This document shows positions 8,933-29,821 of a stretch of DNA of 32,578 nt, piece after piece. The number at the start of each line of letters is the position of its first letter. The first letter of the stretch is position 1. This DNA is from a virus (taxonomy: Duplodnaviria; Caudoviricetes), in the IMG/VR virus record IMGVR_UViG_3300025723_000121, positions 1 to 32,578 of that record, one strand, 5' to 3'. The translations under genes were made by a program, and so were the position numbers. The notes under the pieces were generated by a model. It saw only the letters and a program-made list of their open reading frames with translations. It was not told where the DNA came from and made no database searches.

Positions 8933-11900
8933 ATGGCTGAAGAACTTTCTATAGAAGAAGCGTTTGGTTTAGCGCCAAATAATGTTCCTGCAGCAAAAGA
9001 AAAAGAATTTTCTATAGAAGAAGCGTTTGGTGCTGCACCCGTAGTATCTAATGAACCAACTGCAGAAGAACTTGAAACTGCGTCTAAGCCTTTTATTGGG
9101 TATAGACCAAATGTGTCTGCACCTAAAACACGCCAAAAACAAGAAAGCGTATTACAGGGCGTTAATATGGGCGTACCTGATTTCGGGTCGTATCTAAAAA
9201 ACCAAAAAGCAGTTGATGAAATAATAAAAGCAGGTCAGACTGAACAAAACGAAAAACAAAACATATTAAATAAAAAAGCTGCATATGATAGAGAGCAATT
9301 AAAAAAACAGGCTGATAAAGAACAATATGGCGCTACAGATTTAGCTAAAGATATTGGTTTGGGGGTTAGTAAAGGCGTTGTTGACTTAGGTCAAATGGGT
9401 GTAGGGTTGGCGAATATTGCTACTGGTTGGTATCCAGATAATGAATTGGGTATAGGGCAGTGGGGCAAAATGCTTGATAAGTTAAACTATGACCCACAAA
9501 AAACAAACGAATTTTTAAGTAGCTTTCAGAGCGCATCTTTACGTAACCAAGCTCAAAACGTACAAGAGACCAGTGGATTTTTTAATACCATGAAAGCTCT
9601 AGGAGCTAATCCATTAGCTATTGTGGATTCTATTAGTGAATCTATTCCGGGTACTGTACTTGCTGGTGGAGTTGGTGGTCAATTTACAAAAATGCTAATG
9701 GGTAAAGCAGCAGAGGAAGCCGCGTCGTTAGGACTTGTAGGTACTAAAGCTGATGAATTTATAGCAAATAAAATAAAAGAGCAAACATACAAAATAGCTG
9801 CTGCTTCAAGTTCTGCGGAAGGTGCACAAAGTTCTGGTCAAATTGCTGAACAAGCACGGGAGAATGGGGCTGATTGGAATATTTATGTTGCACCTGCTTT
9901 AGCAGCTGGTTTTGGTACTGCGGCTATAGGTATGATCAGCGGTAAAGCAGCTCAAAAATTTGGTATTGGGGATGTACAAACACAGATTGCTGCTAGGACG
10001 GCAGGTATTAAAGGTGTTGGAGAAGGTGAAGGAGCATTTCTTAATAGGTTGCTAAAAGAAGGAGTTAAAGAAGGGGTGTTTGAAGAAATGCCTCAATCAT
10101 ATCAAGAACAAATATTTACTAATTTAGCTACGGGTAAACCTTGGGATGAAGGTATTGATGCCGCCGCCGCGCAAGGGTTAATTCAAGGTTTAGTAATGGC
10201 AGGGGGTCATACCTCTACAGTTGAGGCATTACAAAAAACTTCTTCTACACTAAAAAATATTGGAGCCCCAAGAGAAGGCGCATACCAACAAGATACTAGC
10301 TACGAAGGGCTATCTGATTTAATTGCGCGAAGCAAGGGGTTCTTAACTCCCGCGCAACAAGAGCAACAGCAGCAAGAACAAACTACAGATACTAACTTAG
10401 GTACAGTTAATAATGAAGTACCTGGTACTCAAACAACTGAGACGACTGTACCAGCTCAAACAGCTGAGACGACTGTACCAGCTCAAACAACACCTCCTCT
10501 AACTAAAGAGCAACGTATTCAAAATGAAGTTGAAAGACTGCAGACTAGAAGCATACCTGCGGATGCTGCGTTACAAATTGCAACTGAGCGTGTAAATAGA
10601 CAAGAACAAGCAATAGCTACTCAACCTGTTACCGGTAGAATAGAACAAAGAACCCAAGAGCTTATTGCTTCTGGAGTTTTACCTACTCAAGCTTTAGCGC
10701 AAGCTACTAAGCAAATAGAGGCTGAAGATTTAGCAGACCAAGAAGCGCAAGGAGAAATAAATGCTGCAAGACCTAACGCACAACCACCTGGAACAAGCGT
10801 TCAAACATCTGAACAACCCACTGCAGTACAAGGAACTACCACAGGAACTCAAGGAACTCAACGAAATGGAGTGGTTTTTAATCAGCAGAATGCTCCAAGT
10901 GGTACTGCAGGAAAAGGACAACAACCCACTGCAGTAAAAGAAACATCATTTGTTCCAGTTGGATTTACATATAGAGTATTAGAAAGCCCTGCTTATGAAG
11001 GGCAAAAACCTTTATCTTTAGAAGATGCTGATTTTGAATTAGAAGCTCTACAACTTAGCGCAGAAAAAGGTAGGATGAGCCCGCAAAGATTTGCTGAATC
11101 TGAAATTGGTAAAAGACTTGACACCACTCAAGTAATGAAAGTAAATGAAGGTTTAAGAACCGACCCAGTTAAAACTATTCAAGATTTACGTAATAGTATT
11201 CAACAAAAATCTGCAGTAGAAACTACGCCTACTGTTTTACATGCCCCAAAAAATATTAGACCATTACGAGTATCAATGGCTCCCACTGGGGGTTACTTTA
11301 TTGAGTGGGCAAATGGAACACCCGCTTCAGACGCAAAATATGACACGGCACAAGAAGCTAAAGCTGCAGCGACACAACAGTTTCCCACTTACAAAGTAGC
11401 CGCAGATGTATATTCGCCTGAACAAAAAGCTTTTATTACAGAGCCAATTAAAAAAGAAGAACAACCCGCAACATCAGATATTCGCACAGAAGTTCAAGCA
11501 CTTACTACACCTGCTAAACGTGGACGTAAAGCTACGCCCGAGAAGACTGCGGCTAACAAAGCTAAGCGAAATGAAATAACCAAACAAAACAATAAAGTTG
11601 ATCGAACCGAACTTCCGAAGATAATAAATGATTTAAAAGAAGCTACTGCTCCAATTAACGAAGACTTAACTCTTGAAGAAGCTAAACAAGCTGAAATAGA
11701 TAGAGGTCAAAAGAAACGTTCGGCAATAAGAAAGCTTATTGAACTAAGTGAACACCCATTAAATGAAAAGAATAGTGCTACGGATAAAAGAATATCTGCA
11801 GTGCTTAACAACAGAAACATAATATCTCAGCAAGAAATTGATAATGTTCGGCGTGGGATGAAAGTTAGTGGGCAAGCACTAGCTAATAAAAACAATGTAA

Positions 11901-14900
11901 TCGGCCCAGTACAAAGTAAATTCCTGATGAAGACAACAGGAAGACCAAACAATGCGTTTAAAAAAGCTAAGACTGGGCAAGAAGCGTTAGATATTGTTAA
12001 GAAAACAGGAACTAAATTTGAAAAGTTCTTAGCTACTCGGTTAAAACCATTCTTAAAAAATGTTGAGTTTGTAGTTCTTGAAGACGGAGAGCCTTTACCT
12101 GATGAACTTAATGGAACTAGGAATGGCAAGTTTTGGACTAAAAGTGCGCAGGGTCTTTATGTTGAAGACGCAATGCGTAAAAAGAAAATCATCTATGTGC
12201 GTGGCGCATCTGGTGGTAACTTCCAAGGTATCAACAACACAACCGTATTGCATGAAGCATGGCACGCTGCTACTAACTTAAAAATCTTAATGGCTCAAGA
12301 GTCTATAGATAATAATGTTCAGTTAAATTCTCCTTTGGTTAAAGCGTACCAAGATTTAGAGCAAGTAATAGAAAACGCAGTAGAAGAATTTAAACGCCAA
12401 GCGTTTGAGGCCTTAGATAATCCTGAGAACAAAGGCGAATTACCATACCGACTACAAGCAATTTATGACTTGATAAAGAACGGCCCTATCTTTGAAGACG
12501 CTAGGGAGTTTGTGTCCTATGCGCTAACCGACGAAGACCTACAAGACTTCCTTATGGACGTCAAGGGGTTTAAGACTAATCAATCTTTATGGAGTAAATT
12601 TGTTGATGTTGGACGTAGGTTACTTGGCATACCGCCTGGGGATAATAATGCTTTATCCGATATGCTTGTTGTATCAAATAGTTTCTTATCTGCTAGGGCT
12701 ACATCCTTGCAAAAAGACATGGGCCTATCGTTGTATGCAGAACCTAGTAGACAGACGGGCCCAGATAATGATTTAACCGACGAAGAAGAAAAAGCACTTA
12801 AAGACCCAATACTAGAAGGCATACAAGCTTTAGATGCTGAGTTTAAAAAAGCTATGGATACGTTCCAAAAGTCTGAGGATGGTGCTGAAGCAGCTAAAAA
12901 CGCATCGTTACTACAAGCTTTAAGAGACCCCAAAAGAATATTACCGGCGCTTAACTACGCAGTTAAAGGCATGTCTTCTCGTACGCTAAAACGTTACGTT
13001 CGTATACCACCAGTATCTGTGCTTGCATCTAATACAGCAACGGCTGTACCTAGAATTACAGAGATGTATAAAAACGTGCAGAATATGAAGGGTATGACGC
13101 ACAGTCTACTTGAAAGTGGGGCTAAAGTTGTTACGTTAATCCATAAGACACAGATTGCACAACCTGGACTTAAAGATAAATTAAACAGAGTAGCATTTAT
13201 GTCTACTCTTATGAAGTATGACCCATCTAATCCTAATAATAAAATACGTAATGTTGAAATGGACAATATGTATAAAGCACTGGGGGCAGAAGGGCAGTTT
13301 GTTTATAAGCATGTAAAAGAATATTTCGAAGACCTATCTGATTACTTTAGTAACATATTAGATGAGCAAATTAAAAACTCAGGTCTTCCAGCTGAAGAAC
13401 AAGAAAAACTCATGGCTAAGATTCGTCAAATGTACGAGGCTAGCAAAAAGATTGACCCCTACTTCCCATTAGTTCGTTTTGGTAGCTACTGGTTGCGCAT
13501 AGGTGAAGGAGACCAGAAACAATTCTTTATGTTTGAGTCGTCCGAAGAAAGGGATGCGGCACGTGATGAACTTGCACCAAAGTATAAAGGACAAAAAATA
13601 GTTGTTGGCGATAGTTTAAAAGGGCTACGTGAAGATAACTTTAGGTCTAGCGAAATGCTTAAAGAAATCTTTGGGCTGATTGATCGTACATCTAGTTTAG
13701 CTGAAGCCGAAGATAAAGAAGCAGTTAAAGATGCGGTGTATCAGATATTTTTAACAACAATGCCTGAGCAAAGTTTCCGCAATCAGTTCATTAGCCGTAA
13801 AGGTCTAGCTGGTTTTAGCCCAGACTTCCAACGTAGCGTAGCGCAGGCAGTAACTAATATGGGTACTCAGTTGCCTAGACTTAAGTATGCGCCAATACTT
13901 AGAAACCAAATTGCAGCGGCGCGTCAAGCAATATCTGAAAGACATAGGTATGCTCCGTTTGTTGACGAAATGGAAAGGCGTATTCGTTTAGAACTTAGCC
14001 CGCCACAAAAAGGACTTTCTGATAAATTTGCAAACGGGTTAAACACCGCTACTTATATTTATTATTTATCGGCTGCTAAATCTGCAATCATTCAACCTAC
14101 TAGCGTATTTCAACTGGGGTTTGCACAGCTAAGTAAAAAACATGGCTACGTGGCTGCGGCTAAAGAGCTAACTTCTTTCTTATGGGTCTTTGATAAATTT
14201 GGTGTAACTACCACAAACTTAGATGGCTCTAAAAGTTTTGTATTCCCAAGTATTACAGAGTCTAATAAATTAACCCCAAAAGAAAAAGAAGCCGTGCGTT
14301 TAATGGTCTCAAGAAACGTAACTCAGTCTACGTATGCAAACGCAATATTTAATTTTAGGACAACGCCTACTGATAAACTAGATGGCCCAGCTATGGAGAG
14401 ACTAAAAGGCACGGTAAATATGTTTGTGCTTGGCGGGTTAATGGGTTCGGCTGAACGCTTATCTAGGGAAATTGTATACCTAGCTTCTTATCGGTTAAAT
14501 ATTAAAGCTAAACTTTCTCATGAAGCTGCAATAGACATGGCAGTGGAAGACGTTAACGAATCTTTGGGTGACTATGATTCTTTTAATAGGGCGCCTTGGA
14601 TGAAGAGCGCAGCAGGAAAAATATTTACGCCTTTTGATATGTACCCCATAACTGTAACCGTATACCTAATTAAAAACTTTACGCGTATGTTACCTTTACT
14701 TAATAAGGAAGGAAAAGTTGAAGCTTTGCGTGCTTTCTTTGGGGCTTTAGGTACTACATGGATATGGGCTGGTGTAGTCGGCTTACCTTCATATAGTATT
14801 TATATGGGTCTCTTAGGACTATTTTGGAAAAAACACGAGAAAGATAAACCAAATGATATGCGGGGTATTGACTACAGGTCATGGTTTGAAAGCAAGGAAA

Positions 14901-15703
14901 TGCCTAGGGTTCTTGGTGAGTTATCAATAGCTGGAATTAAATTATCTGACTATGTAAAAGACCCTGCCGCACTTGCGCTTAGAGGCCCAGCTAACTACAT
15001 GACAGGATTGGATTTTTCTTCAAGTACCAGTTTAAACGACTTATGGTTTAGACAGACTAAAGAAACTAAAAATATGCACGATGAAGCTATGGCTCTAGCG
15101 TTAGAAAAAGCTGGTGCATCTGTCAACATGTTAGTAGCTGAAGCCGAGGGTATCAGTGAACTAATGGACGGCAACTATCAAAAAGCTGCAGAGAAAATGT
15201 TGCCTGCTAGTTTACGTGGTCCTGTTGTAGCGGCTAAGTGGGTTAGAGAAGGTGTTAAAGATAACAAAGGCGATGTCATTATTAAGAAGGGAGCAATAAC
15301 TCCTACAGAACTAATCGGCAAAGTAATTAACTTTAACCCTGACATACTATCCAACGCACAAGAAATGACCTTCCGTTTCTATGCAATTGAGCAAAGAGTC
15401 CAAAACGAACGTCAAAAAATACTTGATCAATTAGATGCTGCATATAGAAACAATGACAGTAAAACATATGCTGAGCGTTATAAAGAAATGGAGAAGTTCA
15501 ATATTAAGTATTCTTTAGTATTCCCAGAATATGAGATTACCCAAGATAACATAGTAGAAGCGTTTGATACCCGTGCACAGCAAAGAGCGCAATCTTGGAA
15601 CGGCGTAACTCTAAGTGAAAAGAATGCCGTTGCAGCAAACGAAATATTAAAACCCTCAAGAAAAGCTATTGTTGAGCGAGTTAAAAAAACCCAAGGGCAA
15701 TAA
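8933..15703 (+). CDS. Large internal virion / polyvalent-type protein with zincin-like HExxH domain
   Basis: 2256 aa, RBS AAGGA. Ala/Gly-rich membrane-like N-terminal region, TVLHEAWHAA (nt 12251-12265) with downstream EFVS, YFPLVRFG motif, helical C-terminal domain with hydrophobic segments. Last gene of the late block. Confidence 0.7.
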   Translation: MAEELSIEEAFGLAPNNVPAAKEKEFSIEEAFGAAPVVSNEPTAEELETASKPFIGYRPNVSAPKTRQKQESVLQGVNMGVPDFGSYLKNQKAVDEIIKAGQTEQNEKQNILNKKAAYDREQLKKQADKEQYGATDLAKDIGLGVSKGVVDLGQMGVGLANIATGWYPDNELGIGQWGKMLDKLNYDPQKTNEFLSSFQSASLRNQAQNVQETSGFFNTMKALGANPLAIVDSISESIPGTVLAGGVGGQFTKMLMGKAAEEAASLGLVGTKADEFIANKIKEQTYKIAAASSSAEGAQSSGQIAEQARENGADWNIYVAPALAAGFGTAAIGMISGKAAQKFGIGDVQTQIAARTAGIKGVGEGEGAFLNRLLKEGVKEGVFEEMPQSYQEQIFTNLATGKPWDEGIDAAAAQGLIQGLVMAGGHTSTVEALQKTSSTLKNIGAPREGAYQQDTSYEGLSDLIARSKGFLTPAQQEQQQQEQTTDTNLGTVNNEVPGTQTTETTVPAQTAETTVPAQTTPPLTKEQRIQNEVERLQTRSIPADAALQIATERVNRQEQAIATQPVTGRIEQRTQELIASGVLPTQALAQATKQIEAEDLADQEAQGEINAARPNAQPPGTSVQTSEQPTAVQGTTTGTQGTQRNGVVFNQQNAPSGTAGKGQQPTAVKETSFVPVGFTYRVLESPAYEGQKPLSLEDADFELEALQLSAEKGRMSPQRFAESEIGKRLDTTQVMKVNEGLRTDPVKTIQDLRNSIQQKSAVETTPTVLHAPKNIRPLRVSMAPTGGYFIEWANGTPASDAKYDTAQEAKAAATQQFPTYKVAADVYSPEQKAFITEPIKKEEQPATSDIRTEVQALTTPAKRGRKATPEKTAANKAKRNEITKQNNKVDRTELPKIINDLKEATAPINEDLTLEEAKQAEIDRGQKKRSAIRKLIELSEHPLNEKNSATDKRISAVLNNRNIISQQEIDNVRRGMKVSGQALANKNNVIGPVQSKFLMKTTGRPNNAFKKAKTGQEALDIVKKTGTKFEKFLATRLKPFLKNVEFVVLEDGEPLPDELNGTRNGKFWTKSAQGLYVEDAMRKKKIIYVRGASGGNFQGINNTTVLHEAWHAATNLKILMAQESIDNNVQLNSPLVKAYQDLEQVIENAVEEFKRQAFEALDNPENKGELPYRLQAIYDLIKNGPIFEDAREFVSYALTDEDLQDFLMDVKGFKTNQSLWSKFVDVGRRLLGIPPGDNNALSDMLVVSNSFLSARATSLQKDMGLSLYAEPSRQTGPDNDLTDEEEKALKDPILEGIQALDAEFKKAMDTFQKSEDGAEAAKNASLLQALRDPKRILPALNYAVKGMSSRTLKRYVRIPPVSVLASNTATAVPRITEMYKNVQNMKGMTHSLLESGAKVVTLIHKTQIAQPGLKDKLNRVAFMSTLMKYDPSNPNNKIRNVEMDNMYKALGAEGQFVYKHVKEYFEDLSDYFSNILDEQIKNSGLPAEEQEKLMAKIRQMYEASKKIDPYFPLVRFGSYWLRIGEGDQKQFFMFESSEERDAARDELAPKYKGQKIVVGDSLKGLREDNFRSSEMLKEIFGLIDRTSSLAEAEDKEAVKDAVYQIFLTTMPEQSFRNQFISRKGLAGFSPDFQRSVAQAVTNMGTQLPRLKYAPILRNQIAAARQAISERHRYAPFVDEMERRIRLELSPPQKGLSDKFANGLNTATYIYYLSAAKSAIIQPTSVFQLGFAQLSKKHGYVAAAKELTSFLWVFDKFGVTTTNLDGSKSFVFPSITESNKLTPKEKEAVRLMVSRNVTQSTYANAIFNFRTTPTDKLDGPAMERLKGTVNMFVLGGLMGSAERLSREIVYLASYRLNIKAKLSHEAAIDMAVEDVNESLGDYDSFNRAPWMKSAAGKIFTPFDMYPITVTVYLIKNFTRMLPLLNKEGKVEALRAFFGALGTTWIWAGVVGLPSYSIYMGLLGLFWKKHEKDKPNDMRGIDYRSWFESKEMPRVLGELSIAGIKLSDYVKDPAALALRGPANYMTGLDFSSSTSLNDLWFRQTKETKNMHDEAMALALEKAGASVNMLVAEAEGISELMDGNYQKAAEKMLPASLRGPVVAAKWVREGVKDNKGDVIIKKGAITPTELIGKVINFNPDILSNAQEMTFRFYAIEQRVQNERQKILDQLDAAYRNNDSKTYAERYKEMEKFNIKYSLVFPEYEITQDNIVEAFDTRAQQRAQSWNGVTLSEKNAVAANEILKPSRKAIVERVKKTQGQ
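8946..9031 (+). repeat. 23-bp direct repeat TTTCTATAGAAGAAGCGTTTGGT (8946-8968, 9009-9031)
   Basis: Encodes the duplicated peptide E[LF]SIEEAFG at the N-terminus of the large protein. Confidence 0.9.
10428..10491 (+). repeat. 27-bp tandem repeat, about 2.4 copies
   Basis: CTCAAACA(A/G)CTGAGACGACTGTACCAG twice plus a partial copy. Encodes QT[TA]ETTVPA repeats in a linker. Confidence 0.9.
10761..10937 (+). CDS. Overprinted 58-aa hypothetical protein nested in the +1 frame of the large virion gene
   Basis: AAGGAGAAATAA-ATG. Reads MLQDLTHNHLEQAFKHLNNPLQYKELPQELKELNEMEWFLISRMLQVVLQEKDNNPLQ*, with helical amphipathic composition where the host frame is a low-complexity linker. Confidence 0.6.
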   Translation: MLQDLTHNHLEQAFKHLNNPLQYKELPQELKELNEMEWFLISRMLQVVLQEKDNNPLQ

Positions 15704-15727
15704 AAAACCCCCGCACATAGGCGGGGG
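15702..15727 (-). terminator. Rho-independent terminator of the early/replication block
   Basis: Minus strand CCCCCGC-CTATGT-GCGGGGG followed by TTTTTT. Confidence 0.85.
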
Positions 15728-15778
15728 CAAGGAGGAGCAAGGAGCGAACTTGCTAGGAGGAAACCATGAATCAATCAG
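15702..15778 (-). ncRNA. Candidate small RNA with three anti-Shine-Dalgarno motifs
   Basis: TATAAT at 15789-15784, then UUCCUCCU, hairpin AGCAAG-UUCGCUC-CUUGCU, CUCCUU, then the terminator. 11-nt complementarity to the RBS of ORF 19963-20391. Confidence 0.4.
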
Positions 15779-15791
15779 TATTTATTATATA

Positions 15792-15986
15792 CTAAACCCT
15801 CCAAACACGTAACCCTTTAATGCCGTCTTGAATAACTACCTTTGTAACAATATTAATTTGTAATCGTTTGGTTACAGTTTTCAATACTTTCCGAGCAGTT
15901 CTATGGTCTATGCAGGGTATAAAAAATGAATACCCTTTTCTAAACTTAGCCCAATTAATCTCATACGTTAATGTCTCTATCTTCAT
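15792..15986 (-). CDS. Small basic hypothetical protein (possibly DNA-binding)
   Basis: W..F..G.SFFIP...GLRVWRV. Start set at ATG 15986, overlapping the primase end. Confidence 0.6.
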   Translation of the reverse strand: MKIETLTYEINWAKFRKGYSFFIPCIDHRTARKVLKTVTKRLQINIVTKVVIQDGIKGLRVWRV

Positions 15987-18801
15987 TTTGTTGTAACAGT
16001 ACATCTATGTGCAAGAAATCACTAGCTGAAGCATCAAACTTTAATGCACGTATTGGTGGCGAAACAATCTTCATGCCCTTAGCCATGCGTTTATTCATGC
16101 TTTCTTTATATACTTTAACGCCCTCTAGTTTCTTAATTGTAGTTTTGTAGTTCAACTGTTGTCGTACACAGAAATCTTTAAACTGTTTAGCCGCAATATA
16201 TAATTCTTTAGTATCTGGTTCGTAGCGTATCAGTAGTTCGTTCTTAGGTTCCATCAGTGGCATAGCAACCATACTTGTTCTAGCGTCGGCTTCACCATTA
16301 ACGACCAAAATATTGCCAATGTGTGCATTAATGAAATCCCCCAAAGCTGCGGTTGGGCTGTCTTGTTGTGGTGCTTTAACCTCGTTGCGCATTTCGCCAA
16401 GCATCCTCTTTATCCACTCGTATATAGCTTTCATATCAAACTCATGCAGTTCTAACTTCTTAGCAACTAACCCTGCAGTAATAATACAAGCACAAGTTGC
16501 CGACCAAAACCTTTCACGACTGGTAAACTGTACTTCTTTATCTAATCTAGCCTGTACTTTTTTAAAGCTATCTTTAACATACTCTAAGTTATTAACAAGA
16601 TATTGAAGATAAATTTCACCCGCATGCCCATAGTTTTCACGCAGTTGATGATCAAACATTTCTTTACCTTCGGCGACACTAATAATATTTGATGGCTCTA
16701 TTCTGAACTCAATCAACCTTACTGATTCACCGTCGGCAACCGACTTGGATGCGCTGAGCTTTTCATAAAAACTTGCATTAGATGAACATAAAGTTAGATT
16801 TTGCCAAGAGGTATTGTTAACCCGCAGTTCGTTGGATGAACCCTTTACTCTATCTTTGCCCGTACCACCTGAGATACTGTATGCGTAGTCGGAAAACTCT
16901 TTACCAGATAGATTAGTAATTTCATCTACTGTGTTTGGCAAGTGGTTCATGACTCCTAGCTTTAACATCTTTGCATTGAATGTGTCTCTGTACGTAGAGG
17001 TAAGCCTAACTGGGTCACCGTAAATGCTATTACACATATAAAGGGCAGTTGATTTTCCTGATCCGGCTTGCTCATGTATCAAGTTAACTATTGCGCCTTG
17101 TAATCCTGTAAATTTAAATAACGGTGAAGCAAATCCAACAAGTGCGGCAAACGCATTAGCCTCTAACCCGGGCTTAGCATACATATTGAACGCTGTTTTC
17201 CAACCTTCTAGCGTACCTTTAGGGTGAATCTTTTCTGCAATGTTTTCCGTTGCAGATGACGGCGGGCTATAGAAAACTCCGTCTTTAGTTATCTCTTTAT
17301 CGCCCATGACAAACTTACTATCACCATCTACCCAACCAAATTGTGTTCTCATAATCTCTGCTTTCTTTTGAAACTGTAGGTTCTTAACAAATGTTATAAC
17401 AAACGCCGCCAATGCGTCGTAGCTTTTATGGTGCGCCATCACTCCACGTTGGGCTAAACATCTACGCAACTCATCTCTTGCGGATATTGAACTTGTCGGT
17501 ATAGTGAACTCTCTCATTCCATCATGAGGTAGATGCAACTTAAATAAAATTACTTCCCCCTGCTCCTTGTCGTGCATTCGTTTAACAACATAAAAATCGT
17601 GCTCATAAACTAACTCAGGGTCTGACTCTTCTTCGCTATCAGGTCTTTTATATATTCCGCCGTTCTTACCTCTAAAGTATGGAAACGGATACTCAGGTAT
17701 CCTAACTGTTGTAACTTGCTCCTCAACCTCTACTTCTACTTCGTTGTCGGCTTCACTAGCTTCTTCTATCTCAGCACCCAAAACTATGGGTGACTTGATA
17801 ACTCCTTTGTGTACACAACCTTCGCATCCTGTTGGATTAAGTTTCTCAAACTGAGCACATGTATGAGGGCCTCCCTTCTTAACAATGTTGTCTACTTTTC
17901 TATCGACTTCATCAGGGTCATAGCCTTCGTACTTGTTGGACATCATATGCGATGCCTTTTCTTTATCCACGCAAAACGCAGTTATAGATAGAGCTGAACG
18001 CCACAAAGGTTCTTCAAGCGTATCTTGATTTTGAAAACAGTGCAGTAGTTGATTGCAACCATCTCCTTTCACCGACCGCATCATGATTGTCTTAAAACGC
18101 TTTACCTTATTGCTCATCAAAGCCTCCATCATGGGGCTCATCTTGCGAGGCAAGAAGTCAGGCATTTCGTCTTTAGGTTCAGGTGCGCCAAGTAATACTT
18201 TGACTTCGTCGTAGGTCATACGACGCGTCTTATCACTCAGCACAACTACTGGTAGTGGCTCGGCTTTAAAATTAAAAGTACCGGGAACACGCAGTATCCT
18301 AGATGCTTCAAACACGGACGGGTCAACAATCAACCCATGCTCTTTACAAAGATCACGTAGTCGGTGAGACAACGACGTCCACTCTCTACGCTCTAATGTC
18401 TCCTCAAGTAACCAGTAAGCATGAATGCCGTTACCTGAGTTAACGATTATTGGCTTTGGTAAGCCGACTGTTTTGCAAAACTTAGAAAGTTCAATAAGTC
18501 CAATTTGTTGTGTCAGATACCCCTGTATCCTGCCCTTTTTATCGGGGACACCTTTAGTTGCACCACAATCAATATCCATCCATAGAGACCTAAAGTAGAC
18601 TGCATTCTCATGTGTGCGGTTATCAGCAGAACCATACTTAGCACAACCAAAAAAAGCATCTATCTTATTCTCTACAAACTTTTTGATTATTTCATCTACT
18701 TCTTCCTTTGTATCTACAAATCTTTGATCGGGATACTTACCATTACCAAACACGCAGTATCGCCCTTCCGTCGGCAATACGGTATCTAGTAGGTCAAACA
18801 T
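15961..18801 (-). CDS. Primase-helicase: RepB/AEP-like primase + Cys cluster + DUF927 + P-loop helicase
   Basis: WMDIDCG and NSGNGIHAYW primase motifs, ASRILRVPGT.N, Cys cluster (C..PHTC..CEGC.H), QFGW DUF927-type motif, Walker A AGSGKST, Walker B TVDE, ENYGHAG. Confidence 0.85.
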   Translation of the reverse strand: MFDLLDTVLPTEGRYCVFGNGKYPDQRFVDTKEEVDEIIKKFVENKIDAFFGCAKYGSADNRTHENAVYFRSLWMDIDCGATKGVPDKKGRIQGYLTQQIGLIELSKFCKTVGLPKPIIVNSGNGIHAYWLLEETLERREWTSLSHRLRDLCKEHGLIVDPSVFEASRILRVPGTFNFKAEPLPVVVLSDKTRRMTYDEVKVLLGAPEPKDEMPDFLPRKMSPMMEALMSNKVKRFKTIMMRSVKGDGCNQLLHCFQNQDTLEEPLWRSALSITAFCVDKEKASHMMSNKYEGYDPDEVDRKVDNIVKKGGPHTCAQFEKLNPTGCEGCVHKGVIKSPIVLGAEIEEASEADNEVEVEVEEQVTTVRIPEYPFPYFRGKNGGIYKRPDSEEESDPELVYEHDFYVVKRMHDKEQGEVILFKLHLPHDGMREFTIPTSSISARDELRRCLAQRGVMAHHKSYDALAAFVITFVKNLQFQKKAEIMRTQFGWVDGDSKFVMGDKEITKDGVFYSPPSSATENIAEKIHPKGTLEGWKTAFNMYAKPGLEANAFAALVGFASPLFKFTGLQGAIVNLIHEQAGSGKSTALYMCNSIYGDPVRLTSTYRDTFNAKMLKLGVMNHLPNTVDEITNLSGKEFSDYAYSISGGTGKDRVKGSSNELRVNNTSWQNLTLCSSNASFYEKLSASKSVADGESVRLIEFRIEPSNIISVAEGKEMFDHQLRENYGHAGEIYLQYLVNNLEYVKDSFKKVQARLDKEVQFTSRERFWSATCACIITAGLVAKKLELHEFDMKAIYEWIKRMLGEMRNEVKAPQQDSPTAALGDFINAHIGNILVVNGEADARTSMVAMPLMEPKNELLIRYEPDTKELYIAAKQFKDFCVRQQLNYKTTIKKLEGVKVYKESMNKRMAKGMKIVSPPIRALKFDASASDFLHIDVLLQQNEDRDINV

Positions 18802-19962: not shown

Positions 19963-20391
19963 TTAATTTTCCTTTGGTCTTCTAACTAACACGGTATATT
20001 CGTTTTCGACATTTAAACCCATCGGCAAAAGGTCAGGATTCTCTGTAAGAAACTGCTTCAAGTTTGTTTGGTGAAGTCGCTTCTCAAGTAGGCCGAACGC
20101 ATTATGTTCTTTGATGAACGCATACGTTGAATCCCAATCGTTTGTCCAATACCGTGATTTAATTGAACGCACAATCGTGCCAAATTTAGTTTTAATACTG
20201 TCGGCTTTCATGCTCTTACACATATCAAGCATCTTCTCTTCAAGCATGTCCATCTGCTCTTTGATCTTGTCATCTTGCAGTTCATACTCTTGTTTTAGTT
20301 GGGCTCGTTTGTCACGCATCTTGATATATGCTTGGGTGACTTTATCCAACGGAATAATAAAGGGATTTTCATCCTGAACTGTATCGTCCAT
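19963..20391 (-). CDS. Conserved phage replication-module protein (coiled-coil N-terminus)
   Basis: YIKMRD coiled coil, SIKTKFGT, DWD...FI. RBS AAGGAG. First gene after a consensus promoter. Confidence 0.65.
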   Translation of the reverse strand: MDDTVQDENPFIIPLDKVTQAYIKMRDKRAQLKQEYELQDDKIKEQMDMLEEKMLDMCKSMKADSIKTKFGTIVRSIKSRYWTNDWDSTYAFIKEHNAFGLLEKRLHQTNLKQFLTENPDLLPMGLNVENEYTVLVRRPKEN

Positions 20392-20419
20392 ATTTTTCGC
20401 TCCTTGTTGTTGAAATATT

Positions 20420-20447
20420 ATTATAACATAACTTTATACAATGTCAA
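20420..20447 (-). promoter_or_regulatory. Sigma70-type promoter for the replication operon
   Basis: Minus strand TTGACA (20447-20442), 16-bp spacer, extended TG-T-TATAAT (20425-20420). Confidence 0.8.
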
Positions 20448-26222: not shown

Positions 26223-26246
26223 AAAAAAGCCCACGTAATGTGGGCT
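26223..26246 (-). terminator. Rho-independent terminator
   Basis: Minus strand AGCCCAC-ATTAC-GTGGGC followed by TTTTTT. Confidence 0.85.
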
Positions 26247-26712: not shown

Positions 26713-26890
26713 TTAATGCTCCTTGTTGTTTAACATAATTGATAAGAATTTCTCTGATTTTGGCTTGCTTTGTATACGGATGGTGCTTGGCAAAGTAATC
26801 CAATACGTCAATAGGTATACGCAAACTCGTGCACAGCATCGCAGGTTTCTTACCCTTACCTCGATATATGCGTTTGTTATCTTCATTCAA
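26684..26890 (-). CDS. Ribbon-helix-helix / BrnA-like DNA-binding protein
   Basis: RGKGKKPA...SLRIP.DVLDYF...KIREIL. TTG start overlapping the upstream TGA. Confidence 0.55.
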   Translation of the reverse strand: MNEDNKRIYRGKGKKPAMLCTSLRIPIDVLDYFAKHHPYTKQAKIREILINYVKQQGALNEETNSTNQ

Positions 26891-29634: not shown

Positions 29635-29821
29635 CGTCATCTCCTTTAATTTCTTTTACACCTGATACCGCAATGATGATCTCGTTGCAGTCGGGGTCAC
29701 ACCCAAAGTCCTTACATATATCGTGCCAGTCGTGAGGCATGATTGTAGGGTCTAGTCTTATCCATCCACCCTTAGGGAGAACGATATAGCCCTCCTTAAG
29801 TAGTTGCTCTTTAGTTACCAT
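29621..29821 (-). CDS. Hypothetical protein
   Basis: RBS AAGGAG, overlaps the next gene. Confidence 0.55.
   Translation of the reverse strand: MVTKEQLLKEGYIVLPKGGWIRLDPTIMPHDWHDICKDFGCDPDCNEIIIAVSGVKEIKGDDDGIV

Follow-up and report, generated by a model that had tools for sequence, protein, structure and literature searches.

A probable trans-acting small RNA against phage ribosome binding sites, encoded behind the replication operon of an apparently virulent freshwater phage

A non-coding element located behind the replication operon of a tailed freshwater phage and its relatives is real and under selection. The element is likely to encode a trans-acting small RNA (sRNA) directed against ribosome binding sites (RBSs) in an apparently virulent phage, an RNA that would act like the c4 RNA of phage P1 and falls outside the Rfam families. 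Our preferred reading, to which we assign a probability of roughly two in three on the basis of sequence comparison, is that the unit yields an RNA of approx. 77 nt that would block in trans the translation of a small number of early-strand genes of the same phage, mainly ORF 20391 and a DUF3310 gene. The comparisons demonstrate promoter elements, a one-way terminator, a hairpin and co-variation between RNA and target. To judge from them, the seed is complementary to a distant RBS and has been kept so by selection in about half of the lineages.

Results

Genomic setting of the element

The window, i.e. the whole stretch of 32,578 nucleotides analysed here, represents about half of the 61-66 kb genome of a tailed phage from freshwater. 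Late genes on the + strand end at position 15703 and converge with a replication block on the minus strand. This block comprises DNA polymerase, exonuclease, helicase, ORF 20391, a gene in the SSB position, an HTH gene, a primase-helicase and a 70-aa ORF; the label SSB was inferred from gene position, as the gene matches no named family. The features at the junction are as follows.

8933..15703, + strand: convergent late-strand gene of 2256 aa, whose stop codon overlaps the U tract of the terminator
15701..15728, - strand: minus-strand-specific intrinsic terminator
15729..15735, - strand: single-stranded CCUCCUU anti-SD tract just before the terminator
15736..15754, - strand: seed hairpin, of which the loop and 3' stem arm (15748-15738) are complementary to the 20391 RBS
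15755..15770, - strand: 5' arm, complementary to a generic SD-spacer-AUG region and lineage-specific
15701..15778, - strand: predicted small RNA of ~77 nt, the 5' end deduced from the -10 box
15784..15789, - strand: -10 box TATAAT (family form TANA(C/A)T)
15807..15812, - strand: -35-like hexamer, TTACGT in the window and TTGCGN in most relatives, within Leu-Arg codons of the last ORF
15792..16004, - strand: last ORF of the replication operon, likely start 15986 (70 aa), no family; carries the -35

The sequence was confirmed in four DNA runs with 0-1 differences within the element, although these runs may include the DNA's own source. We estimate that IMG/VR holds approx. 1500 matching stretches of this family. 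Among 50,697 records of cultured phages the 70-aa protein had no match, and the nearest cultured-phage primases are only 24-30% identical. At the corresponding place, Rhizobium phage RHph_TM27A has a short spacer and a terminator without a CUCCU body, and in Pseudomonas phage Rollin the convergent genes overlap. The 70-aa gene also occurs on three MAG contigs of different phyla, which are maybe mis-binned, and the element is clearly intact on two of them. Neither a tyrosine integrase nor a serine recombinase was detected in any of five near-complete relatives, which makes a virulent lifestyle of the family likely, though not proven. In one relative (G004), the 43 of 70 ORFs that were scanned included terminase, portal, capsid, tail fibres and GroES, while RNA polymerase and integrase were absent from these 43.

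A conserved promoter-terminator unit

The -10 box at 15789-15784, the terminator, which spans 15728-15701, and the intervening sequence were all present as described in the original prediction. The -35 hexamer TTACGT of the window is weak and is placed exactly 17 bp upstream of the -10. We collected 151 loci carrying the 70-aa gene with its stop codon, 146 of them with at least 110 nt downstream, which collapse to 102 distinct sequences with the window counted. A TANNNT motif at most 14 nt from the stop was found in 101 of the 102 (exactly 2 nt after it in 89), a terminator likewise in 101, and a -10 together with a terminator in 100. Downstream of four control genes TANNNT was present in 15/76, 19/77, 10/94 and 39/101 loci (11-39%). 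The stricter motif TANANT separated the sets further, with 99/102 behind the 70-aa gene versus 0/76, 1/77, 5/94 and 17/101 behind the controls. Moreover, among the 87 relatives that encode Leu 17 bp ahead of the -10, 63 use the codon TTG, with 21 expected from the codon use of the primase. An opposite-strand U tract was found at none of 101 terminators. The predicted RNAs of the 102 distinct loci range from 44 to 106 nt.

Conserved promoter elements together with a one-directional terminator point to independent transcription, one of the two origins originally envisaged, from a non-coding unit that, by its sequence, has its own promoter and intrinsic terminator. The other origin is the 3' UTR of the 4.7-kb operon mRNA, without separate promoter activity, which would either pair back onto its own leader or be processed into a 3' fragment. 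Such pairing is described for icaR of Staphylococcus aureus, in which an anti-SD motif at the 3' end of the transcript pairs with the SD sequence at its front (PMC3868564). The transcript that the element terminates indeed begins at 20447, and the first RBS on it is the best target; the weak -35 of the window would fit as well. We nevertheless regard this origin as improbable: the non-coding -10 fixed in 101/102 loci and the biased TTG codon require a promoter as explanation. Unlike in icaR, a conserved internal promoter precedes the motif here, and the second target described below is on another predicted transcript.

Structure of the predicted RNA

The AGCAAG/CUUGCU hairpin with its 7-nt loop is part of both the MFE and the centroid fold of 15778-15701 (z -3.0). 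A multi-arm RNA with three CUCCU motifs had been proposed; CUCCU in fact occurs four times, distributed over three arms (two copies overlap), and three arms are not typical of the family, since 59 of 100 bodies contain a single CUCCU. The sequence of the RNA body is not conserved across relatives; nevertheless, CUCCU was found in 84 of 100 bodies versus 9 in mononucleotide shuffles. The hairpin type of the window was picked out by pattern in 21 of the 100 bodies, so that the invariant columns of this set are not evidence. Among 14 distinct copies of this hairpin, three of the five stem pairs have changed on both sides. Furthermore, the stem co-varies together with the RBS.

The RNA co-varies with the RBS of ORF 20391

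The main predicted target is situated in front of the fourth gene named above, directly behind a promoter.

19963..20391, - strand: target gene, 142 aa, coiled coil plus alpha/beta domain, DUF7307-like
20396..20406, - strand: main predicted target, SD and spacer of ORF 20391, 11-nt complement
20420..20447, - strand: sigma70 promoter (12/12) directly before ORF 20391

Perfect complementarity of the loop and 3' arm to this RBS was confirmed over 11 nt (20406-20396), the longest match to the RNA body elsewhere in the window. Within the window alone, an 11-nt match arose anywhere in 41% of dinucleotide shuffles and in one of 38 start regions in 2.8%. The single-window match is therefore modest (p ~0.03 for starts; 0.41 anywhere), and relatives were needed. 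By duplex energy, the RBS of the HTH gene is the only one among 55 candidate starts of the window that ranks above this site, and the predicted net binding of the RNA to the 20391 RBS is -18.9 kcal/mol.

For the co-variation analysis, the RNA of each phage was paired with its own RBS (cognate) and compared with swapped pairs. Both RNA and 20391 RBS were held by 73 loci, leaving n=50 after dereplication on the RBS. Cognate pairs clearly exceeded swapped pairs in this set, with z values of 9.9 for the longest helix and 8.3 for the energy. When one random member per primase cluster was used, z was 8.3, 6.4 and 4.9 for 34, 17 and 12 clusters, respectively. A match of at least 9 nt to the phage's own 20391 ortholog was reached by 46% of cognate versus 6% of swapped pairs for the 34 clusters (41-46% versus 3-6% across cuts). 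The signal remained on the spacer side beyond the GGA (z 5.9). Of 27 independent sister pairs, 12 favoured the cognate partner by the helix measure, 3 did the opposite and 12 were ties (p 0.018); by energy the difference did not reach significance (14:8, p 0.14). Different lineages carry different keys, each matching the RBS of its own phage: UUCGCUCCUUG in the window, GUUAGCUCCUU in L177, GUUAGCUCCAU in L203 and UUAGUUCCUUUC in L201. The RNA of L253 forms a 15-nt helix with its own 20391 RBS, and that of L264 a helix covering the AUG. In about half of the lineages the RNA does not match the 20391 RBS over 9 nt, and the large clades with a longer 20391 leader are mostly among those without a match. 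Co-variation of the loop with the RBS of 20391 orthologs, which the original prediction had suggested looking for in relatives, is thus present in approximately half of the lineages.

A held-out set, for which predictions were set beforehand, consisted of 24 loci, of which 19 had the gene and 14 an ATG start and the RNA, 12 of these being distinct; some are closely related to loci seen earlier. Three of the 12 reached 9 nt, versus 3.8% of swapped pairs (z 3.4, p 0.001). Inclusion of three GTG-start genes read by eye gave 4/15, which is lower than the predicted 40-50%. Exact spacer predictions in this set were never fully right, each deviating by a bulge, a mismatch or a wobble or failing outright. 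When cognate duplexes were picked without regard to mismatch type, their mismatches were G-U rather than A-C in a ratio of 6:1, compared with 45:46 in swapped duplexes (p 0.06).

This G-U excess favours pairing of a minus-strand RNA with an mRNA and bears on whether the plus strand might be the functional one. Repressors such as CsrA can be titrated by RNAs that carry RBS mimics or GGA motifs. Read-through late RNA could be a decoy of this kind, or a 9-codon peptide could be made from the SD-ATG at 15755-15770. The plus strand has no terminator, 21 of 100 loci have an SD and ATG on this strand, and it folds as well as the minus strand (47:45 across bodies), which renders strand asymmetry uninformative. 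However, promoter and terminator polarity define the minus strand, and the plus-strand peptides are unrelated in length and sequence. We consider a plus-strand function extremely improbable.

A second target and the specificity of the signal

Apart from 20391, one further ortholog group stood out in 24 longer genomes, that of the DUF3310 gene.

26718..26725, - strand: second predicted target, RBS of the DUF3310 (nucleotide-kinase-like) gene 26712-26272
26228..26246, - strand: terminator-like site after the DUF3310 gene, which puts this target on another predicted transcript

Co-variation with the DUF3310 RBS had a z value of 4.1, with 35% of cognate versus 12% of swapped pairs matching in 17 clusters. 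As a terminator-like site follows the gene, this target argues for action in trans and against a leader fold-back. The 8-nt matches at 26725 and 29831, noted originally as hits to the RBSs of two further genes, do exist, as do many other matches of 8-10 nt located outside RBSs. The gene starting at 29821 belonged to no ortholog group of at least five members across the 24 genomes. In the same genomes, early-strand starts other than 20391, DUF3310 included, were slightly enriched for matches (4.2% versus 2.7%, p 0.011), and late-strand start regions were not (1.2% versus 1.4%).

The starts of the SSB, HTH, helicase and 70-aa genes displayed no co-variation with the RNA; control start codons were picked automatically and some are wrong, e.g. 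that of the 70-aa gene in the window. VRR-NUC and exonuclease starts gave no signal either, and for the polymerase too few loci were available. The primase exhibited a weak signal by energy only (z 2.7 for n=50, 3.2 for 34 clusters and 1.7-1.9 at coarser cuts). Since co-variation is lacking for SSB, HTH, helicase and late genes and the primase has only a weak energy signal, the proposed feedback on the replication genes in general, or on the whole operon, was not borne out. What stands of the predicted trans-acting translational repressor is a seed that co-varies with the 20391 RBS and, more weakly, with that of 26712.

These data also bear on whether the element is an ordinary terminator leader, its matches reflecting shared ancestry, generic SD complementarity or inverted copying at the DNA level. 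The modest single-window match and the half of the lineages without any match would be in line with this. Opposed to it are the co-variation with particular genes, seen over 12-34 clusters with diverse spacers and lacking at neighbouring genes, the conserved promoter and the preference for G-U over A-C; we hold an ordinary leader to be very unlikely.

In some genomes the same extended RBS is found at several genes, five in G004, the capsid gene among them. The early region beyond the window is supplied by contig L418, which is 94-99% identical to the right end of the window. There, the loop of the window's RNA matches two further early RBSs (11 and 9 nt).

The 5' arm and the GCAGUUGC hairpin

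Within the early region of L418, a near-identical strain, the 5' arm had no exact target and only interrupted matches that are within chance: among 729 early starts of non-cognate origin, 7% and 12.5% did as well as its best partners, at the ORFs at 2593 and 1757, respectively. The arm is absent from the sister lineage L160. An exact search with its 16 nt retrieved 120 viral loci, in 116 of which the site starts an ORF. None of these loci has a terminator behind the site, and the seven with family similarity are lysozymes only. An architecture combining anti-AUG and anti-SD elements was not clearly enriched (22/100 versus 16 in shuffles, with a maximum of 25). The GCAGUUGC hairpin, present in 27 of 100 relatives, had no consistent phage complement except for start-codon pairing with DUF3310 in G003, G015 and G031.

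Such arms without a phage partner are what one might expect if silencing of host mRNAs through generic anti-SD arms were the main job, in the manner of the Burkholderia double-hairpin 'toxic' sRNAs, and the phage matches were secondary. The occurrence of CUCCU also in lineages without a phage match and a weak Rfam likeness to suhB and RF02278 are compatible with this. We think it unlikely as the main function, as host targets cannot account for co-variation on the spacer side of the phage's own RBS. Silencing of host mRNAs may be additional to self-targeting.

The protein encoded by ORF 20391

The 20391 protein has a DUF7307 structural neighbour in the Atlas. Pfam scores for Mu Gam and Sipho Gp157 were below threshold (20.9 bits versus 27 and 19.2 versus 28.3, respectively), and the matching PHROG is labelled minor head protein. 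A structure model reached a pLDDT of 78, and a fold search returned generic coiled coils only, with Z up to 5.6 over approx. 50 residues.

Discussion

Under the preferred reading of a self-targeting sRNA, the host sigma70 polymerase would transcribe the unit. The 7-nt loop would nucleate pairing on the spacer side of the RBS. The target would then open the stem by strand displacement at its 3' arm, and the resulting 11-bp helix would cover the SD sequence and exclude the 30S subunit. As the downstream SSB, HTH and primase RBSs do not co-vary, the likely effect is a lowering of the first gene relative to the others. The strongly promoted first gene would thus be damped relative to the rest of the mRNA, with a delayed brake as the RNA accumulates, and DUF3310 would likewise be damped selectively and with a delay. 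If 20391 were Gam-like, restricting a DNA-end-binding protein past the early phase would make sense, although this step is speculative.

The closest functional parallel is the c4 antisense RNA of P1 and P7. It is described as a trans-acting RNA of ~77 nt which base-pairs close to the RBS of an mRNA of its own phage. The complementary sequences probably reside in loops, the RNA differs among related phages, and it silences an antirepressor in the service of lysogeny (PMC12197685, PMC8198154). The predicted RNA resembles c4 in length, in loop complementarity near an RBS of its own phage and in its differences between lineages. In contrast to c4, the targets are DUF7307/Gam-like and DUF3310 genes rather than an antirepressor operon, and an integrase or serine recombinase was found in 0/5 near-complete relatives, in a search that did not extend to plasmid-type lysogeny genes. 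Rfam c4 was not among the matches up to E 10 for 15500-16100, and nothing reached the gathering score in Rfam.

Other base-pairing regulators of phage or host mRNAs are sar of P22, OOP and PreS of lambda, and VpdS of VP882. Lysis-lysogeny genes are the reported targets of sar and OOP, PreS is directed at host dnaN, and VpdS works through Hfq on RNAs of both phage and host (PMC12197685). As far as the sources available go, c4, sar, OOP and aQ are self-targeting sRNAs of temperate phages that control lysis versus lysogeny. Whereas sar, OOP, PreS and VpdS are all from temperate phages, the phage described here is apparently virulent.

CU-rich unpaired tracts complementary to RBSs are reported for the Burkholderia double-hairpin RNAs ncS03, 05, 27 and 62 and for Neisseria NmsR, which are chromosomal and have host metabolic targets (PMC5688073). 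The phage element shares with the betaproteobacterial toxic sRNAs its shortness, a terminal terminator and unpaired CU-rich anti-RBS tracts; it differs in that its seed is variable and follows phage RBSs. It scored 14.4 bits against RF02278 (Betaproteobacteria toxic small RNA; cut-off 50) and was not assigned to this family. The best Rfam match, suhB/MmgR RF00519, was likewise rejected at 23.1 bits (cut-off 41): a UUUCCUCC-like tract and a terminator are in common, but the 5' stem is not kept, and the phage family has no family-wide fixed seed.

No description of the element was found in the literature searched, which excluded most subscription papers. Six motifs were absent from the searched supplement files of PMC10690425; the other supplements of this paper may hold the element as an anonymous candidate.

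A more far-reaching idea, which we regard as rather doubtful, is that seed and RBS form a lock and key diverging by lineage. The sRNA of a resident virulent phage might then silence the first replication-operon gene of a newcomer with the same key, resulting in superinfection exclusion and heteroimmunity groups without lysogeny, while the generic arms and the GCAGUUGC hairpin would hit host RNAs.

If the preferred reading of a self-targeting sRNA is true, single cistrons of an operon would be tuned by an sRNA in lytic phages that show no obvious polymerase for RNA of their own. Its targets can be deduced purely from co-variation, a rare situation among short trans pairings, and the family would offer natural orthogonal sRNA/RBS pairs that can be tested without phage culture.

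Predicted pairing of the putative sRNA with initiation regions

The extended ribosome binding sites (RBS) of two adjoining genes, 25435 and 25658, are identical.

25447-25436, minus strand, window: extended RBS of gene 25435
25670-25659, minus strand, window: extended RBS of gene 25658

Pairing of this RBS with the 3' arm of the predicted sRNA is better than that of 99.6% of non-cognate starts; across the family, the 25435 ortholog group did not emerge as a clear target. In the L161, L194, L199, L228 and L290 clades, the short leader of the ortholog of gene 20391, the main predicted target, is replaced by a longer one, which contains a hairpin in some cases. The sRNA match is mostly missing in these clades, suggesting an alternative control in cis of the 20391 ortholog.

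Variation of the predicted sRNA among related phages

The sequence GCAGUUGC is conserved within the 5' hairpin of the predicted RNA in 27 of 100 relatives (including L169, L186, L194, L201, L219 and L253), and the predicted sRNA of the window does not carry this hairpin. The octamer is self-complementary if G-U pairs are counted. No consistent phage target was found for it, and its partner may be a host RNA or protein. At the related locus L022 the terminator 3' of the 70-aa gene is missing, and at L312 the end of this gene is divergent and the -10 box is absent by the search rule applied.

Other features of the phage genomes

Further elements were located in the window, in L418 (a near-identical strain), in the related strain L316 and in a longer related genome (G004).

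26246-26183, minus strand, window: terminator with an 11/12 sigma70 promoter immediately behind it, upstream of the VRR-NUC gene
L418:1120-1750 and L316:4100-4570: apparent non-coding leader of about 450 nt, 5' of the first early gene
L418:2263-2500 and L316:5080-5380: non-coding, AT-rich segment in which GTTAC/GTAAC words recur and long inverted repeats are present, lying 3' of the first early gene
L316:3590-3900: GC-rich blocks in several copies, together with a palindromic run of the C6G6 type, separating the terminase region from the early region
L402:17651-18061 (G004): GroES co-chaperonin gene adjoining the portal and capsid genes

The terminator-promoter pair is a second modular junction, situated in the early/middle region. 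The early leader, 78% conserved between L418 and L316, could contain a structured RNA, and the GTTAC/GTAAC stretch is possibly an origin or an operator array. The GC-rich blocks possibly represent a genome end or packaging site. A GroES co-chaperonin is encoded in this phage family.

Predicted late transcription across the putative sRNA locus

The convergent late gene ends at 15703, and a plus-strand terminator for its transcript at this junction (15701-15792 in the window) was found in none of 101 loci. The late transcript would therefore cross the predicted sRNA in antisense orientation and then enter the replication genes.
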